A stretch of 64,000 bases of DNA from Gammaproteobacteria bacterium UBA3067 (GCA_002366835.1 DFBZ01000038.1:12689-76688), one strand, 5' to 3'. Positions 4,088 to 54,466 are shown, counted from the first letter of the stretch. Notes: generated by a model from the sequence alone, not told the origin. Program-made: numbers and translations.

Positions 4088-4597
4088 ATGGTGACATTTA
4101 CGCTTAACGGAGAGCAGGTTGCGCTTCAGATTGACCCTGAAACCCCCCTTTTGTGGGCGCTAAGGGAGCAGTTAAAAAGCACCGGCACCAAATTTGGGTG
4201 TGGGAAGGGTTTATGTGGTGCATGTACTGTCCATATCAACGGGAGTGCAATGCGCTCATGTATTACCCCCGTAAGTAGCATAAACGGAATGGCCGTTACC
4301 ACCATTGAAGGCCTTTCGGAATCAAACTCTAACCCGCTTCAACAGGCATGGATTGCCGAAAACGTTCCCCAGTGCGGATACTGCCAGTCTGGTCAGATTA
4401 TGTCTGCTGCTGCACTGCTTATGAAAAACCCTAACCCCGATGATGAAGAAATTAACCGCGCCATGTCTGGCAATTTATGCCGCTGTGGCACTTATCCGCG
4501 TATTCGGCGCGCCATTCATCGAGCCGCGAAGAATGCGGCATCTCTTGAGTCGGCTCAAAATGTACGCGCAGATTCCCACGGGAAAATGACGCCATGA
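4088..4597 (+). CDS. (2Fe-2S)-binding small subunit of a molybdopterin oxidoreductase (IorA / aldehyde oxidoreductase gamma-like)
   Basis: 169 aa with [12 protein letters not shown] and [10 protein letters not shown]...NLCRCGTY, the two [2Fe-2S] cysteine clusters of the xanthine-dehydrogenase-family small subunits. Its stop overlaps the next gene's start in an ATGA overlap. Confidence 0.85.
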
Positions 4598-6816
4598 GCT
4601 TAAACAGACGGGACTTTTTGAAAGTTGGGGCGGCCAGTGGTGGGGGTTTGTTGTTATCGGTCGCCCTTTCGGGTTGTGAAAGCGCTCCCGAGGATGACAA
4701 AAGCTGGGCAGGGGATGACTTTATACCAGCGGCTTGGATACGGATATCTTCTGATAATGCGATTACTTTCTACATTGATCGCTCCGAGATGGGCCAAGGT
4801 GTGAGCACCTCGCTGCCAATGCTACTGGCAGAAGAGCTTGATGTTGTTCTTGAAACGGTTAACGTGGAATTTGCTCCTGCCCATCCTCGTTTCGACTCAC
4901 CTCGTCTTTTTATGATGATGACGGGTGGCAGTACGAGCATTGCTGAAAGCTTTTTACCTATGCGGCGTGCCGGTGCCACCGCACGGCTTCTTTTAATAAA
5001 CGCTGCGGCGCAACGCTGGGGCCTAGATTCTTCAGCGTGTACTACAAACAAGGGCAGGGTAATGCACCCTGATGGTCAGCAATCCTTTCATTATGGTGAA
5101 CTCGCTAGCCTGGCAAGTACGCTGAGTGTTGATGAAAACAAGGTGAAGCTTAAACTACCATCAGAATACCATTATATCGGCAAGCCCATCCCAAGGCTGG
5201 ATAACGAAATCAAGGTGAACGGTCGAGCAGGTTTTGGTATTGACCAGGATCTTCCTGGTTTATTAGTAGGCGTCGTTATTCGCTCCCCCTGGTTCGGCGG
5301 ATTTGTAAGTAGTTATGACGCCGAAAATGCCAAAGTCATGGGCGGTGTTCAGGGTGTTGTTCCTATTTCTTCAGGCATTGCTGTTGTTGCAGATTCCTAT
5401 TGGCAAGCACGTGAGGCCACAAAATCAGTAATAATAGAGTGGGACAAAGCTAGCTTCTCGGGAGCCAACGAGGGGGATCTCCGCGCAGAAATGCAGGCGC
5501 TGGCGGGTGAAAAGGGCAGTAAGTTGCTCGATATTGGCGATTTCGAAGGCTCTTTTTCTAGCGCCGATAAGACCCTTGCGGCGAGTTATCGGGTGCCGTA
5601 TTTGGCCCATGCCACGATGGAGCCTATGAACTGTACCGCTCGTGTGCAAAAAGACCACTGTGATATCTGGGTGCCTACACAAGCACAAAGCAGTGCGCAG
5701 GCCCTTGCTGCCGGAATCTGCGGCTTTAAACTTGAGCAGGTCGCTGTGCATACCACCTTTTTGGGGGGAGGGTTCGGAAGGCGCGCGAAGCAAGACTTTG
5801 TGGTGGAGGCAGTTGAAACCTCTAAGGCCCTTGGCAAACCGGTAAAAATCATCTGGTCGCGCGAAGACGATATGCAGCATGATTACTATCGGCCACCTGC
5901 TGTCAGTGTCCTGAAGGCGGGCTTGGACTCGAATGGCTTCCCTCAGGCTTGGTTTCATAAAATGGTTAATACCTCTGTGGTTGCCGACTCGCTGGAAGGA
6001 GGCTTACTCGCAGGCATGTTCCCTGGATGGGTGCCGTATAGCTTAAAAGATCTGGGGGGTGACCTTGGTGCGAAACTGGTTCGCAATACCAATGAGCCCA
6101 TTTCCACAGAAGGTGGCGTGGATATTCCTTATTCTATTCCTCATCAGCGGGTAGAAAGAGTGAAGTTTAACTTCCCAGTGCCATTAGGGTTCTGGCGTTC
6201 GGTGGGTCACTCTCATACCGCTTTTATGATTGAAAGTTTTATTGATGAACTGGCTCACTTGGCTGAGCAGGATCCCTTTCAATACCGATTGAGACTTTTA
6301 AAAAATAAGCCTCGGCATAGCGCTGTACTGGAGAGAGCTGCTGCACTGGCTGGTTGGGGTGCTCAGGTTCCGGCAGGTCGAGCCAGGGGAGTCGCTCAGC
6401 ACTCCTCCTTTGGAAGCTATGTGGCCCAAGTGGCGGAGGTGTCGGTGGATAAAAGCGGGGGCTTACGTGTTCATAAGGTGGCGTGCGCAATAGATTGTGG
6501 TCAGGTAGTTAACCCCGATATCGTAGTGGCCCAAATGGAAAGCGCTATCATATTTGGTTTAACCGCTGCCCTGAAGGGGGAAATTACCATTGAAAACGGA
6601 GGGGTAAAGCAGTCCAATTTTCATGACTACCCTCTGTTGCGTATCGATGAAGTGCCTGAAATAGAGGTGTCCATCATCGATAGCACAGAAATGCCGTCTG
6701 GTGCGGGTGAGCCCGGCACCCCGCCTATTGCACCGGCTGTTGCCAATGCTTTCTTCGCCTTGAGCGGCAAGCGGGTACGGGAGTTGCCTCTGTCCAGCGA
6801 GGTCTTAGGTAGCTAA
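4594..6816 (+). CDS. Molybdopterin-dependent oxidoreductase large subunit (IorB-like), with a Tat signal and lipobox
   Basis: 740 aa. It has an N-terminal twin-arginine motif ([12 protein letters not shown]) followed by LSGC. IorB/aldehyde-oxidase-like motifs are present, including EMGQG, GGGFGRR and [15 protein letters not shown]. Confidence 0.8.
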
Positions 6817-7028: not shown

Positions 7029-8015
7029 ATGAAGGAACTCTCTGTTATGAATTATTTTAAAGAAGTTGTGCTTTCCACTGCATTGATATCTCTTGCAGCT
7101 TGCGGGGGTGGAGACGGCGATAATAAGGTAACTTTTGGTCAGAGCGGTGATCTCCAACTCAGTATTACCGATGCTCCGGTAGATATGGCAGAGCAGGTCA
7201 ATATCACTTTCGAAAAAGTAACAGTAAAACCCCTTGATGGCCGCCCGAAAGAACTCGAAGACCTGAAGATAACGACTATTAACCTTCTTGATTACACAGG
7301 TGGTGAGAGTGAGTTGCTGCTTGATACTTCGGATGAAGGACCAGATGCTACTCCCTTGCCAGCAGGCGAGTATGAGTGGATGCGTTTTCATATAAGCGAA
7401 GCAAACATCGTCATTGATGGTCAACAGTATGAGTTAGACGTACCAAGCGGCGATACTTCTGGACTAAAAGTTAATACCCCCTTTTCAATCCCTGCGAACG
7501 ACATTGGTTTCTTTACTATCGATTTTGATTTAAGGCATTCGGTTATCGGCCCTTTCGACTTAAAAGTGGGAGGTGTTGGAACGGGTGAGCAATACTACAA
7601 ACTGAAGCCCGTATTGCGACTGGTTGAGAATAATGACGTAGGCAAGGTAACGGGTACCGCAGACAGCACGCTACTCGCTACTTGCAGTACAGAAGAAGAT
7701 TTACCCGCAGCGGTTTATCTTTTTGAGGGCGAGCTGGAAGAAGAAGAGCTTGATGATGTTGATCATGAGGTAGCAGACGAAGACCGTCAGGTAGCTGATT
7801 TGATAGATCCATTTATGTCGGTTTCACTTTCTTATCATGCTGGTGATGCGGCATTCAGCTTTGGCTTTGTGCCTGCAGGAACCTACAGCATTGTGCTTGC
7901 TTGCGGGGAAGATAATGCCGATAAAGATGAAGATGAACTCGAGTATGAAGGCTTACAAGAAATAGTCGTCACAGCCGGTGAAATAACCGAAGTTACCCTA
8001 ATAGATGAGTCATAA
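7029..8015 (+). CDS. DUF4382-like lipoprotein with an acidic insert
   Basis: 328 aa with a signal and lipobox (LISLAAC/GGG). The LSITDAPVD motif is typical of DUF4382. An acidic EELEEEELDDVDHEVADED stretch is present. The start may instead be the ATG at 7047. Confidence 0.6.
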   Translation: MKELSVMNYFKEVVLSTALISLAACGGGDGDNKVTFGQSGDLQLSITDAPVDMAEQVNITFEKVTVKPLDGRPKELEDLKITTINLLDYTGGESELLLDTSDEGPDATPLPAGEYEWMRFHISEANIVIDGQQYELDVPSGDTSGLKVNTPFSIPANDIGFFTIDFDLRHSVIGPFDLKVGGVGTGEQYYKLKPVLRLVENNDVGKVTGTADSTLLATCSTEEDLPAAVYLFEGELEEEELDDVDHEVADEDRQVADLIDPFMSVSLSYHAGDAAFSFGFVPAGTYSIVLACGEDNADKDEDELEYEGLQEIVVTAGEITEVTLIDES

Positions 8016-9534: not shown

Positions 9535-9903
9535 TCAGGGCTGGCCTTTTCTCAGGGGGTTGCAGTCTTTGATAATGACTTTTCCCTCAAGCAGGTTCCC
9601 TTTGGAATATTCGTTAAATACACAGGTATTGTTTTTGGGATTGTAGTTTTCTATCCATAAGTTATCTTCTTTCCACGTGGCTTGCATATGGAGCTGCCCC
9701 TTGGGCACAGAGATATGCATGGTGCCACCCCAGTGTTTTACAAATACCTGCTGCAGATTAAAGTAATAAAGCAGAGATCCGGCTCCCAACAATATCAAGC
9801 CTGCGGTCCCGGCAACTTTCCAGTTCTTGGTTTGTTTGCTTAACAATAAAAAAGTGCCAAAGCTGAGAGCGATAACAAGTGCCCAATAAAGATATGTGAT
9901 CAT
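9535..9903 (-). CDS. Hypothetical membrane-anchored protein (122 aa)
   Basis: Two N-terminal hydrophobic helices and then a small soluble domain. I recognise no family. Its start lies 43 bp from MITE copy 1. Confidence 0.5.
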   Translation of the reverse strand: MITYLYWALVIALSFGTFLLLSKQTKNWKVAGTAGLILLGAGSLLYYFNLQQVFVKHWGGTMHISVPKGQLHMQATWKEDNLWIENYNPKNNTCVFNEYSKGNLLEGKVIIKDCNPLRKGQP

Positions 9904-9945
9904 TTGTATTCAACCTTCCATCTGTTAGTGTCTTGATTTTATATA

Positions 9946-10085
9946 GGGCATCTCTAAAAATTAGAATTTTTATTTGAGAGCAAGGAAGCACCGCACGGAA
10001 ACCCGCAGTGTACAAGGGCTACATGAGGAGTTGAGTACGGAGCTGACGCCGCTATCGGGTAAAAAGACAATTTTTAGAGATGCCC
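9946..10085 (+). mobile_element. MITE-like element, copy 1 (140 bp)
   Basis: Perfect 17-bp terminal inverted repeats, GGGCATCTCTAAAAATT ... AATTTTTAGAGATGCCC. It is flanked by TATA at 9942-9945 and at 10086-10089. Homologous copies are at 29317..29455 and, inverted, at 54003..54188. Confidence 0.85.
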
Positions 10086-10162
10086 TATAGTATTGCTATG
10101 TAAGGATGACTGTCTATATTAGTGATAAATTTTAGAAAGAAAAAATGGCAGGGAGCTGGAAA

Positions 10163-29222: not shown

Positions 29223-29316
29223 GAATTCCTGCCTAGATTTTATCTTGCTTAATGGTGCTCTCTACTGGCATGGATGCTGCTGAGTTTTTATCAGACGGCG
29301 TTAAACATTGTTTTAA

Positions 29317-29455
29317 GGCCATCTCCAAAAATTAGAATTTTTATTCGAGAGCAAGGAAGCGCCGCACCGAAACTCGGAGTGTAGAAGGACTACATGAGGA
29401 GTTGAGTACAGAGCTGACGCTGCTATCGGGTAAAAGGCAAGTTTTAGATATGCCC
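29317..29455 (+). mobile_element. MITE-like element, copy 2 (139 bp)
   Basis: It aligns end to end with copy 1, with about 15 mismatches or indels by hand alignment. It is flanked by TTAA at 29313-29316 and at 29456-29459, and ends 22 nt before the ppc ATG. Confidence 0.8.
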
Positions 29456-29477
29456 TTAAGTAATTGAGGGAAAAGTC

Positions 29478-32204
29478 ATGCCTATAGAAAGTCAGAATCA
29501 AGACAATCAAGCCCCGCTTCGAGATGATATTCGCACCATGGGTCGCTTACTCGGAGAGACGATTAGTGAGCAAGCGGGGGAGCAGGTGTATGACCTAGTT
29601 GAAACAATTCGTTTGTTATCTAAAGATGCAGCGAATGGAAATCATCAGGCGATATCGGAATTACAGGTGCTATTATCGGGCCTCGATGATGCCCACCTAG
29701 TACCCACTGCCCGCGCTTTTGGGCACCTCCTTAACCTTATGAATATCGCAGAACAACAACACCGTGTTCGCCGTTTACGCCAGTCGCGCAAAACCAGTAC
29801 TTCAGAAGTTTATCGTAAATCCCTGGATCACTTGCTTGAGCACCTTCTGGAGGAGGGAATATCGAAATCCTCCATTATGGAAAGCTTTGAAGCCTGTCGC
29901 ATTGAACTAGTGCTGACCGCCCACCCCACCGAGGTTACGCGACGAACCATTAGCCAAAAGCATGACCATATTGCACGGCTGCTCGCATCGCGAGATCGCA
30001 GTGATATGACGGAATATGGCTCTGCCCGTTTTGAAGAGCAACTGCGCAGGGAGATTGCAGCCGTATGGGCAACGGATGAAATTCGCCACCATAAACCGAC
30101 TCCCATAGATGAGGCAAAATGGGGCTTCACTACGGTTGAGCAGACCCTTTGGCAATCTGTGCCAGACTACTTGCGTTATGTGGATTTTAAACTGCGCAAA
30201 CACCTGGGTGAGGGGCTCGATTTGCAAGCCAGCCCGATACGATTCGCCTCGTGGATGGGTGGCGATAGAGATGGAAACCCCAATGTGACCGCCCAAACCA
30301 CCAATGAGGTGTGCTGGTTATCCCGCTGGCAAGCAGCGGAGCTATTACATCGGGATATTGATGCGCTGCGTAACGAGTTGTCGATGTCGGAGTGTAGTGA
30401 TGAAATCAAGAAGCTGGTGGGTGGACACGCTGAGCCTTACCGCGTACTGCTTCGTACCGTTCGGGATAGACTCGCCGAGACGCGTGAATATCTGTCTGCA
30501 AGGCTCGCTGGGCACCATGTGGATGAAGGCAACATTTATGTTGATGTCGATGAATTAAAAAACACTCTCATGCTTTGTTACCACTCTCTGGTAGAGCATG
30601 GCATGCAGCGCATTGCTGATGGTCTGCTTACGGATATTATTCGTCGCGTTAACTGTTTTGGGCTAAATTTGTTGCCTTTGGATTTGCGTCAAGAATCTTC
30701 CCGTCATGCCGAAGTGCTCGATGCCGTGACGCGTTATGTGGGCCTGGGCAGTTATTTAAGCTGGAACGAACAGCAGCGGGTGGATTTTCTGGTAAACGAG
30801 CTCGAAGGGCGTCGCCCACTGATACCTTTTGAGTTTTTTGAACAAAACCTCGATGCTGTATATCTGGACGAGCTTGAACGCGAGGCGGACTATCCCATCG
30901 AGAACGTTTACGAGGTGCTTGCGACGTTTAAAACGATTTGTTTACACCCTCGCAGTAGTTTTGCAAATTACATTATCTCTATGGCGCATGGGGCTTCGGA
31001 TAGTTTGGCTGTAATGTTATTACAGCGTGAAGCCGGTGTTGTAGAGCCTTTGCCTGTTATGCCTTTGTTTGAAACCCTTGATGACCTCAATTCCTCTGGC
31101 GAGGTTATCGAGCAATTGTTTCAGATCGAAGGTTATCTAAAGCGAACCGGAGCCAAGCAGGGTGTGATGATCGGCTACTCCGACTCTGCAAAAGACGCAG
31201 GTTTTCTTGCAGCTTCCTGGGCACAGTATCGTGCGCAGGAAAAACTGGTGGAAATCTGCCAACGCTATGGGGTAAAGCTTAACTTGTTTCATGGGCGTGG
31301 TGGCTCAATGAGCCGGGGCGGCGGTTCGGCCCACGATGCGCTACTTTCCCAGCCACCCGGCGCAGTGAATGGCCAAGTGCGTATTACCGAGCAAGGCGAG
31401 ATGATTCGTTTTAAGTTCGGCCTGAGTGGTATTGCTCTGCGTACCCTGGAGCTGTACACCTGTGCCACCCTCGAAGCGACGCTTACTCCCCCTCCCGCGC
31501 CCTCAGACCAATGGCGCAAGGAAATGGACGTTTTAACCACGAGTGCGCTCAACAGCTATCGAAGTACCATTAATGACGCGTCTTTTCTTGATTATTTCCA
31601 CAGGGCAACGCCTGAAAAGGAGCTGCAACGCCTTTCTTTAGGCAGCCGACCAGCGAAGCGTAGCGCCCAAGGGGGAATAGAAAGCCTGAGGGCAATCCCG
31701 TGGGTTTTCGCGTGGACACAAACCCGCTTACTGGTTCCCGCCTGGTTGGGGACGGAGCAGGCGCTAGAAGCATCCATCAAAAATGGGCAGCTGGGCGTGA
31801 TTCGTGACATGAATACCAACTGGCCATACTTTTCTTCCATTATCGATATGCTCGAAATGGTGCTGGCCAAATCTTTTCCCCTGGTCTCGGAGTATTACGA
31901 GCACCGTTTAATGCCTGAAGGAAAGTCAGGCACCGGTGATTTGCTAAGAACAAGGTTGGAAAAAGCAATCTCTTCCATGTTGGCTTTGCGAGGTGCTGAT
32001 CAACTTTTGCAACAATCTAATGTTATTCAACGCTCTATTACAGTGAGAAATCCCTATGTGATGCCGCTGCATTACCTGCAGGCAGAAATTATGTACCGGC
32101 TCAGAAACAGTGAAACAACGGGAGATGAGAAGGAGGGTGTTTATGAGCAGGCTCTTAAAATTTCTATCGCAAGTATTGCCGCGGGTATGAGAAATACCGG
32201 GTAA
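29478..32204 (+). CDS. ppc: Phosphoenolpyruvate carboxylase
   Basis: 908 aa with VLTAHPTE, GYSDSAKDAG, FHGRGGSMSRGG and the C-terminal AAGMRNTG signature. Confidence 0.95.
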   Translation: MPIESQNQDNQAPLRDDIRTMGRLLGETISEQAGEQVYDLVETIRLLSKDAANGNHQAISELQVLLSGLDDAHLVPTARAFGHLLNLMNIAEQQHRVRRLRQSRKTSTSEVYRKSLDHLLEHLLEEGISKSSIMESFEACRIELVLTAHPTEVTRRTISQKHDHIARLLASRDRSDMTEYGSARFEEQLRREIAAVWATDEIRHHKPTPIDEAKWGFTTVEQTLWQSVPDYLRYVDFKLRKHLGEGLDLQASPIRFASWMGGDRDGNPNVTAQTTNEVCWLSRWQAAELLHRDIDALRNELSMSECSDEIKKLVGGHAEPYRVLLRTVRDRLAETREYLSARLAGHHVDEGNIYVDVDELKNTLMLCYHSLVEHGMQRIADGLLTDIIRRVNCFGLNLLPLDLRQESSRHAEVLDAVTRYVGLGSYLSWNEQQRVDFLVNELEGRRPLIPFEFFEQNLDAVYLDELEREADYPIENVYEVLATFKTICLHPRSSFANYIISMAHGASDSLAVMLLQREAGVVEPLPVMPLFETLDDLNSSGEVIEQLFQIEGYLKRTGAKQGVMIGYSDSAKDAGFLAASWAQYRAQEKLVEICQRYGVKLNLFHGRGGSMSRGGGSAHDALLSQPPGAVNGQVRITEQGEMIRFKFGLSGIALRTLELYTCATLEATLTPPPAPSDQWRKEMDVLTTSALNSYRSTINDASFLDYFHRATPEKELQRLSLGSRPAKRSAQGGIESLRAIPWVFAWTQTRLLVPAWLGTEQALEASIKNGQLGVIRDMNTNWPYFSSIIDMLEMVLAKSFPLVSEYYEHRLMPEGKSGTGDLLRTRLEKAISSMLALRGADQLLQQSNVIQRSITVRNPYVMPLHYLQAEIMYRLRNSETTGDEKEGVYEQALKISIASIAAGMRNTG

Positions 32205-53108: not shown

Positions 53109-54014
53109 TTGGAAAAAAATCAAATTAAAGCCACTCTCTCCATTTTTTTTATCAAGCTAAGCGCAAAACTATCTCTTCCTGTTGCGCAACGTCTTGGGGG
53201 CGCGCTGGGCTGGTTGGTGGCGCAGCTGCCTGTCGAGATTACTAATGTGACACAGAAAAACATTGAACTGTGTTTCCCTGAGCTGCCTGCACCGGCTCAG
53301 CGTAAGCTTGTGGTGGAGTCGCTTATGCATACGGGTTATTTAATGATGGAAATTGGTTCTGCATGGTATAAATCTTTGGAAGAGAATTTGGGTCTCGTTG
53401 CCAAGGTTACTGGGCAGTCAATCATGGATAAGGCGGCTGCTAAAGGTTGTGGAGTCATCGTAATTGCTCCGCATCTTGGTAACTGGGAGTGGTTAAATTG
53501 GTATACTTCGCAACGTCACCCTGGCGTAATGGTATACAGCCCCCCCAAGCACGAACAATTTGACGCTGTTTTACGGCAAAGCCGCGAGATCGGAGGAGGG
53601 CAGCTCGCACCGGCCAATGCCGCTGGTGTTAAGATGGTGTACAAACATTTAAAGCAAGGGGGAGTGGTTTACATATTACCTGACCAAGTTCCCGGAAAAG
53701 AAGGGGGAGTCGTGGCCTCTTTTTTTGGCATCCCCGCATTTTCTATGACTTTGGTTTCTCGCTTGGCAAGAAAAACTGGAGCGAGTGTTGTCGCTGTTTA
53801 CGGAAAGCGCCTGCCTGCACACAGAGGGTTTGAGGTGGTTTATATCGACGCCGACGAAAGAATCTATAGTAAAGATATTCAGCTTTCTGTAGCAGGGCTG
53901 AATGCCACGGTAGAGGCCTGCGTCCGTGATGCGCCGGAACAATACCAATGGAGCTATAAGCGGTTTAAGCGTTGCCCGCAGCTTGGTTTAAATATATATA
54001 ACGGGCACCTCTAA
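53109..54014 (+). CDS. Lipid A biosynthesis lauroyl/myristoyl acyltransferase family protein (LpxL/HtrB-like)
   Basis: 301 aa with the APHLGNWEW (Hx4E/D) catalytic motif, the ILPDQVP motif and PEQYQWSYKRFK near the C-terminus. The start is a TTG. The last 3 codons and the stop lie inside MITE copy 3. Confidence 0.8.
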   Translation: MEKNQIKATLSIFFIKLSAKLSLPVAQRLGGALGWLVAQLPVEITNVTQKNIELCFPELPAPAQRKLVVESLMHTGYLMMEIGSAWYKSLEENLGLVAKVTGQSIMDKAAAKGCGVIVIAPHLGNWEWLNWYTSQRHPGVMVYSPPKHEQFDAVLRQSREIGGGQLAPANAAGVKMVYKHLKQGGVVYILPDQVPGKEGGVVASFFGIPAFSMTLVSRLARKTGASVVAVYGKRLPAHRGFEVVYIDADERIYSKDIQLSVAGLNATVEACVRDAPEQYQWSYKRFKRCPQLGLNIYNGHL

Positions 54015-54188
54015 ATTGCCTTTTTACCCGATAGCGGCGTCAGCTCCGCACTCAACTCCTCATGTAGCCCTTGTACACTCGGCTTTGGCTTTCTGCTTCT
54101 CTCTACCTTCTCCATCCATGGAGTCGTGCGGGTTTCCGTGCGGTGCTTCTTTGCTCTCGAATAAAAATTCTGATTTTTAGAGATGCCC
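54003..54188 (-). mobile_element. MITE-like element, copy 3 (186 bp, inverted relative to copies 1 and 2, with a 48-nt internal extra segment)
   Basis: It aligns to the reverse complement of copy 1 over its full length, apart from a 48-nt segment at 54080-54127. It is flanked by a non-palindromic direct repeat, TAAC, at 53999-54002 and at 54189-54192. Confidence 0.85.
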
Positions 54189-54466
54189 TAACGCTAACCA
54201 GCCTGAGCGCTTTTGCTTGGGTTGCCTCTGATTAATTTCGGAGAAACTTATCTTTATTCACACTATCCAGATCACTCTGCATGAATCCTTAATAAATATG
54301 CGCCTATCTAAAAGAAACATAATTTTATTTTTTTGAATATTAGTGTGGAGCACTTACTTTTCAGCGTCTATTCTTTTATTAGCCAGCAGAACAGTGTGTT
54401 TTGGTGTCTGTTTGGCTTGGAGCAGTTTTATAATTTTCTGATTGCTGAATAACTGAGAGATACGCA

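Follow-up and report, generated by a model that had tools for sequence, protein, structure and literature searches.

A probable IS5-mobilised MITE family with a recent expansion in one lineage of an uncultured marine-type gammaproteobacterium

Three segments of the 64-kb stretch of DNA analysed here (the window) are very probably copies of one family of non-autonomous MITEs, mobilised in trans by the transposase of an IS5-family insertion sequence (IS). The family is best explained by a recent expansion in one lineage, which has placed it at about 100 or more sites.

Copy 1 (9946-10085, + strand) is 140 bp long and represents the 140-bp class of the family. Its 17-bp terminal inverted repeats are perfect, with GGGCATCTCTAAAAATT on the left (9946-9962, +) and the exact complement AATTTTTAGAGATGCCC on the right (10069-10085, -), and the element is bracketed by TATA at 9942-9945 and 10086-10089. 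Copy 2 (29317-29455, +) measures 139 bp, shares 89% identity with copy 1 and carries two mismatches in each end; it is flanked by TTAA at 29313-29316 and 29456-29459, and the same filled site was found in L101 (L-numbers label the contigs and loci that we compared with the window). Copy 3 (54003-54188) is inverted and lies on the - strand. Its 186 bp comprise the 140-bp unit together with an internal insertion of 48 bp near the hairpin tip (54081-54128, -; boundaries uncertain by 1-2 bp). This module is missing from copies 1 and 2 and defines the 188-bp size class to which copy 3 belongs. The end of copy 3 at 54003 is degenerate, with 5 of 17 positions mismatched at that one end, and the element is flanked by TAAC (+ strand) at 53999-54002 and 54189-54192. 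An earlier reading of the window, made from the sequence only, had reported three homologous segments with these coordinates and these flanking 4-mers, as well as the perfect inverted ends of copy 1, and direct reading and alignment recovered all of them; to its description of three homologous units we add the extra 48-bp module and the single degenerate end of copy 3.

An invariant internal 18-mer occurs three times in the window, where 0.03 occurrences are expected, and the terminal repeat is found at five places (0.36 expected), so that the repeats exceed what chance would produce. Apart from this family, a repeat search revealed no substantial repeats in the window. As the sequence-only reading had stated, the elements are non-coding: the sole ORFs across them start with TTG and run in inconsistent frames. 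The two ORF entries that it had called artefacts, 9758-10015(-) and 29313-29510(-), are of this kind and cross the element in different frames. The first of them is impossible in some relatives, because the element is missing there. Its further statement that the window holds no transposase extends to the partner IS described below, of which tblastn detected no trace in the window.

Comparison with close relatives revealed precise empty sites. Copy 1 was unchanged in the same-strain contigs L004 and L005. In relatives with a 95%-identical GlpK (L006-L017) the corresponding intergenic region was exactly 144 bp shorter, which is the length of the 140-bp element together with a single 4-bp repeat and therefore identifies a precise empty site. 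When aligned, the empty allele reads ...GATTTTA-TATA-GTATTGC..., with TATA present once (as in L006, L011 and L016). At the site of copy 3, the sequence of two close relatives (L135 and L136) is ...ATATATAACGCTGGCTAG, in which TAAC occurs once and the element is missing, and exactly 190 bp (186 + 4) are absent. A 90% relative, L134, has TAGC once and likewise lacks exactly 190 bp. Since TAAC is non-palindromic and is single in the empty alleles, it is a true target duplication. Presence/absence polymorphism with precise empty sites was thus observed for copies 1 and 3. The TAAC pair had been proposed as a signature of transposition and a search for empty sites in relatives had been suggested; the single TAAC of element-free relatives bears out the first point, and the empty sites of copies 1 and 3 supply the second.

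The same relatives provided about 42 kb of DNA collinear with the window regions that hold these two copies (L006-L017 and L135-L137, compared with window positions 1-21600 and 43000-64000), and no MITE copy was found in it. They derive from 'SCHR21-1' ENA metagenomes and Logan runs, and their GlpK is 95% identical to that of the window. Because these collinear relatives carry no copy there, the expansion is specific to the lineage of the window.

To this we could add a large set of loci from metagenomes. A 21-mer taken from the left arm was used to scan JGI metagenomes and returned 112 further loci, all from 7 JGI metagenomes and many of them at contig ends. A BLAST census of these 112 loci gave at least 99 distinct left-end flanks, and hence insertion sites, a copy number that was counted on fragmented metagenome contigs, perhaps belonging to several strains, and not in one closed genome. 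The sequence-only reading had suggested counting copies and had expected a high genomic copy number. Many further copies do exist, at no fewer than 99 distinct sites in metagenomes of the same organism, but the high number applies to the strain lineage of the window only, because the 95%-identical relatives are without copies 1 and 3.

Sixty unique complete copies could be extracted from the metagenome loci, and the 17-bp terminal inverted repeats were conserved across all of them. They fall into length classes of 140 bp (31 copies), 188 bp (17 copies) and about 236 bp (6 copies), with a few odd sizes besides. The three classes differ by nested internal modules of 48 bp, of which they contain none, one or two; the module as found in copy 3 is present in 17 of the 60 copies. 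None of the 41 copies for which both flanks could be scored lies inside a long ORF.

Perfect 4-bp duplications flank 43 of the 60 complete copies, compared with about 3.5% expected from the composition of the flanks, and most of the imperfect ones are off by a single base. Twelve different 4-mers are duplicated: TTAA (8), TAAA (8), TATA (7) and TTTA (6) are the most frequent, followed by ATAA (3), TGTA (3), TCAA (2) and five singletons. Tallied by position over the 42 perfect duplications with long enough flanks, the first base is T in 37, the second A or T in 37, the third A or T in 39 and the fourth A in 41, giving the consensus T-W-W-A; in addition, G follows the duplication at +1 in 25 of the 42. 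The target had been described earlier as an A/T-rich 4-mer. Its length of 4 bp holds, and its composition can now be given more sharply as T-W-W-A.

The state of the duplications differed between the classes, being perfect in 27 of 31 copies of 140 bp and in 1 of 6 copies of about 236 bp. This contrast points to a greater age of the long forms and to recent activity of the 140-bp form. Members of the 140-bp class have a median identity of about 98% to their own consensus. A 36-bp derivative of the family, GGGCATCTCTAAAAATTAGAATTTTTAGAGATGCCC (L028, 10894-10929), contains nothing but the two ends, back to back, and is flanked by duplicated TTCA. Transposition may need no more than the ends, or else this copy lost its whole interior after insertion.

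Two loci, L050 (4582-4970) and L123 (about 330-600), share a further repeat of roughly 300-400 bp that is unrelated to the MITE; an ORF on one of its strands begins MASNNPSSVRDELDRLKHEF.... Inside this shared repeat, L123 (about 600-625, -) has an extra TAAA-GGGCATCTC-TAAA relative to L050 (about 4575-4600). The 9-bp stump of a MITE or IS end between the two TAAA could be an excision footprint or the residue of a copy that was lost almost entirely.

The 16-17-bp terminus of the MITE, GGGCATCTCTAAAAAT(T), also ends an IS5-family IS of about 1.24 kb. When all of the roughly 1 Mb of DNA collected for comparison was searched for terminal repeats followed by sequence other than MITE, one was located at position 4036 of L050. 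This locus reads TTCA followed directly by GGGCATCTCTAAAAATTGCGG, its left end being identical to the left terminal repeat of copy 1, and continues into a decayed ORF that corresponds to the N-terminus of an IS5-type transposase (translation against Pfam DUF772, E = 2e-19; NCBIfam NF033581, E = 2e-31). A protein search with the L050 fragment uncovered four further copies of the IS. L050 and L131 both belong to metagenome Ga0209345, the source of many MITE loci, and both contigs carry MITE copies as well. The L050 copy is truncated and contains stop codons. That of L131 has the end GGGCATCTCAAAAAATTGCGG, and its transposase gene is interrupted at TATA by a copy of the MITE (L131, 3001-3651; the contig stops within the interrupting copy). 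The remaining three come from other metagenomes and possibly from other hosts: L130 is full length (about 1,244 bp) and frameshifted, L133 is full length (about 1,231 bp) with one nonsense codon, TAG at 970-972 in place of a Tyr codon, and L132 is 5'-truncated and frameshifted, with the right end ...ATTTTTAGAGATGCCC followed by TGGA. All five copies examined are therefore defective by these lesions, and among the matches listed for the N-terminal fragment used as query no transposase was longer than 263 aa, compared with an expected length of about 340-365 aa. An insertion sequence represented by defective copies, one of them killed by its own MITE, fits a parasite that has outlived its autonomous partner.

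A transposase reconstructed from L130 scored 277 bits on NF033581 ('IS5 family transposase'; cut-off 140), and the genes called in the IS are annotated with Pfam DUF772 and DDE_Tnp_1. The guess of an IS5-type mobiliser in the sequence-only reading has thereby gained an IS with matching ends. Plasmid-borne transposases of the IS5 family reach at most about 52% identity to the reconstruction. Members of the IS5 group within the IS5 family are about 1-1.5 kb long, have ends that start with GG and produce a 4-bp duplication. The full-length copies found here are 1,231-1,244 bp long, have GG ends and have imperfect 4-bp flanks (TAAA/TATA and TACA/TTTA), and the 4-bp rule for the IS is supported mainly by the MITE copies. 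Like those of the MITE, the IS flanks follow T-N-N-A (TTCA, TTGA, TGGA, TAAA/TATA and TACA/TTTA). One candidate for the parent IS, the sequence that follows a left end in L035 and L057, was rejected as a truncated MITE copy (positions 1 to about 57) beside a decayed host gene, to which a second MITE is added in L035 only.

In L050 and L131 the ends of the IS are identical to those of the MITE or differ at one position. In alignments the identity covers 16-17 bp, and beyond about 17-19 bp the two are unrelated. Sharing only its termini with the IS, the MITE is of 'type II' and not a simple internal-deletion derivative. The link between the two accordingly rests on the termini and the type of target, because similarity stops past 17-19 bp.

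According to the mechanism that we propose, the DDE transposase of the 1.24-kb IS would act in trans on the MITE, bind its 17-bp terminal repeats and excise or copy the element. To receive the element, the target (T-W-W-A) would be cut with a 4-bp stagger, the repair of which would leave the 4-bp duplication. The shared termini make the transposase of this IS the candidate mover, and cut-and-paste chemistry would be expected by analogy with established IS5-family DDE transposases. Alternatively, the MITE could be moved by a different transposase, the common 16-17-bp terminus being due to convergence or to an older common ancestor. The defects in each copy of the candidate IS that was seen are compatible with this, as are the loss of MITE-IS similarity after about 19 bp and the presence in the same genomes of a second MITE family with other ends (CAGGCTGTTGAAATTC) and TTAA or CTAG duplications, which implies that at least two IS5-type transposases have acted in these genomes. 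We nevertheless consider a different mover improbable. The termini agree over 16-17 bp at both ends of the IS, the IS resides on MITE-bearing contigs (L050 and L131), its flanks also conform to T-N-N-A, a 4-bp duplication is the product of the IS5 group, and no other IS with these ends was found in the approximately 1 Mb of DNA searched.

Members of the second MITE family, which does not occur in the window, are 139-285 bp long with 4-bp flanks of TTAA or CTAG. One copy (L035, 4397-4681) was inserted at TTAA, and the site is empty in the orthologous contig L057. Further copies are located in L055 (10894-11115), L114 (3772-3932 and 7621-7759), L075 (4545) and L104 (8000). In L114 a first-family copy (7477-7616) and a second-family copy (7621-7759) abut, so that 7477-7759 contains both elements with one TTAA between them; this shared TTAA indicates that one MITE has used the other's target duplication as its insertion site. 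The centre of the second-family element holds, in inverted orientation, the module of about 100 bp that also occurs in the 236-bp class of the first family. Modules of the 48-bp type were also seen outside complete first-family copies, in L043 (1465-1619) and L116 (11198-11262), with 91-95% identity to the 236-bp consensus used as query. Its inverted occurrence in the second family and its presence at L043 and L116 raise the idea that the 48-bp module is a separate unit, capable of moving or of being swapped between MITEs, either as a very small 'MITE-in-MITE' or as a recombining cassette, instead of a remnant of shared ancestry. We regard this as rather unlikely.

The MITE forms strong predicted hairpins. 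That of copy 1 is long and imperfect, with -56.8 kcal/mol (z = -7.4), and predictions for copies 1 and 3 range from -57 to -66 kcal/mol with z from -5.8 to -7.4. The very high predicted stability, the confinement of all copies to intergenic regions or gene ends, and the position of several copies within tens of bases of start codons, because of which many must lie within transcripts, could point to a functional RNA or regulatory palindrome (a REP/ERIC-like mRNA stabiliser, a terminator or an sRNA) that is maintained by selection and is mobile only incidentally. Other properties make such a role very unlikely. Both strands of the 140-bp unit fold about equally well (-57 and -53 kcal/mol; z = -7.4 and -8.3), and in tandem gene contexts the orientation relative to the flanking genes was unbiased (16 same, 11 opposite). 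Across 31 copies, the proportion of paired alignment cells was 97.8%, compared with 97.7% for shuffles; double changes were limited to one, and covariation thus did not exceed that of the shuffles. No Rfam model matched the window at the gathering score, or the element at E <= 1, so that a known structured RNA, which the sequence-only reading had named as a possible refutation, does not account for it. A terminator-like T-tract was sought 3' of the hairpin and none was present. Finally, close relatives manage without a copy at the loci concerned. The hairpin seems to have come with the master copy and does not look like an RNA structure under selection.

The window derives from an uncultured gammaproteobacterium of marine type that is represented solely by metagenome assemblies. 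A protein with 100% identity to its GlpK is encoded on contigs in NCBI, JGI and ENA that measure up to 193 kb. Among named relatives, metagenome-assembled 'Pseudomonadales bacterium' genomes come closest, with 84% identity in GlpK, and the proteins of cultured genera (Marinobacter and Endozoicomonas, for example) do not exceed 63-64%. A provenance limited to metagenomes and the many copies at contig ends might suggest that the copies were duplicated locally, or that they reflect faulty or chimeric assembly, and are not a mobile element, but the probability of this is practically negligible given identical filled sites in independent ENA, JGI and NCBI assemblies, at least 99 different flanks, precise empty sites and 4-bp duplications in 43 of 60 copies.

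In the window, copy 1 occupies the divergent promoter region between a gene for a 122-aa protein (9535-9903, -), 42 bp upstream of it, and glpK (+), whose start is at 10145 or 10163, 59-77 bp from the element; databases begin this gene at a later ATG than the 499-aa GlpK ORF does. A promoter scan returned a weak hybrid at the right junction of copy 1, AAGACA-16-TATAGT, matching at 9 of 12 positions, which we do not take as evidence. Copy 2 stops 22 bp short of a 908-aa ORF that starts at 29478 and that we take, from its N-terminus only, to be PEP carboxylase.

Copy 3 has rewritten the end of a gene. The lipid A biosynthesis acyltransferase gene (53109-54014, +; Pfam PF03279) terminates inside the element, and positions 54003-54014 are element-derived, supplying the last three codons (GHL) and the stop. 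They are encoded by GGGCACCTCTAA of the element end, as codons GGG CAC CTC TAA. Empty alleles specify 300 aa ending in ...IYNAG*, ...IYNVG* or ...IYSVG*, and filled alleles 301 aa ending in ...IYNGHL* or ...IYNGHF*. The insertion has replaced the last two residues of the protein, and three residues plus the stop now come from the element. Local effects of copies 1, 2 and 3 on their neighbouring genes are plausible.

ERIC of enterobacteria and Correia/NEMIS of Neisseria are palindromic MITEs of about 100-150 bp. The family described here resembles ERIC and Correia in size, in being an imperfect palindrome over its whole length, in its intergenic and often co-transcribed position and in having variants with internal insertions. 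It differs from them in its 4-bp T-W-W-A duplication, where theirs is TA, and in having an identifiable partner IS. Assignment to either was rejected on the duplication, which is 4 bp and not TA and which in copies 2 and 3 is not readable as TA. Membership in ERIC was also excluded by the lack of any blastn match in 5,426 E. coli genomes, because these genomes carry ERIC. The partner IS resembles IS5 of E. coli in its length of about 1.2 kb, its single DDE transposase with an N-terminal DUF772 and a DDE_Tnp_1 domain, and its GG ends. In contrast to the YTAR target of E. coli IS5, the MITE target is T-W-W-A, and the ends of the partner IS are GGGCAYCTCTAAAAAT.

The closest parallels are type II MITEs with ends of IS5-family elements, namely ATR of Neisseria (ISNme1) and BrickBuilt, MITE293 and MITE700 of Porphyromonas gingivalis (ISPg) (PMC4596501). 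As in these four, the MITE is short, non-coding and intergenic, its ends are identical or nearly so to those of an IS5-family IS of the same genomes, and no transposase remnant is found inside it. There is no sequence similarity to the ATR/BrickBuilt group, the ends of which are GAGACCTTCGCA and similar. The variable number of internal repeats in BrickBuilt (PMC4596501) resembles the 0, 1 or 2 48-bp modules, although these are nested and those of BrickBuilt are in tandem. Whereas BrickBuilt has irregular duplications, those of the present family are regular, with 4 bp of T-W-W-A and 43 of 60 perfect. Its copy number of about 100 compares with 19 for BrickBuilt and with a range of '10-20 typical' (PMC4596501).

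Several other collections were searched for the MITE. Scanning 185,579 GTDB species genomes for the invariant 18-mer produced only three chance matches in unrelated genes, which means either that the element is absent from all species representatives or that its source species is not represented among them; this result fits an expansion specific to the lineage of the window. The 140-bp MITE had no blastn match in plasmids, nor in the 5,426 E. coli genomes at E <= 0.01, none was found in IMG/VR contigs, and a full-text search of the literature returned no paper with the terminal repeat sequence. Together with the Rfam result, this agrees with the earlier suggestion of a possibly undescribed element. 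The family is apparently undescribed, but of an ordinary and well-known kind.

The findings leave the accepted mechanism of MITEs unchanged. What is mildly unusual is the high copy number, confined to one lineage, the nested modules in common with a second MITE family that has different ends, the 36-bp derivative and a partner IS of which only dead copies were seen; by the standard of bacterial MITEs, some 100 sites is a large number. In practical terms, the family gives rise to spurious ORFs, broken metagenome assemblies and rewritten gene ends, and its filled and empty sites are ready-made strain markers. Bursts of this type are typical of genomes under relaxed selection, and the element marks a very recent transposition burst in one lineage of an uncultured marine gammaproteobacterium.
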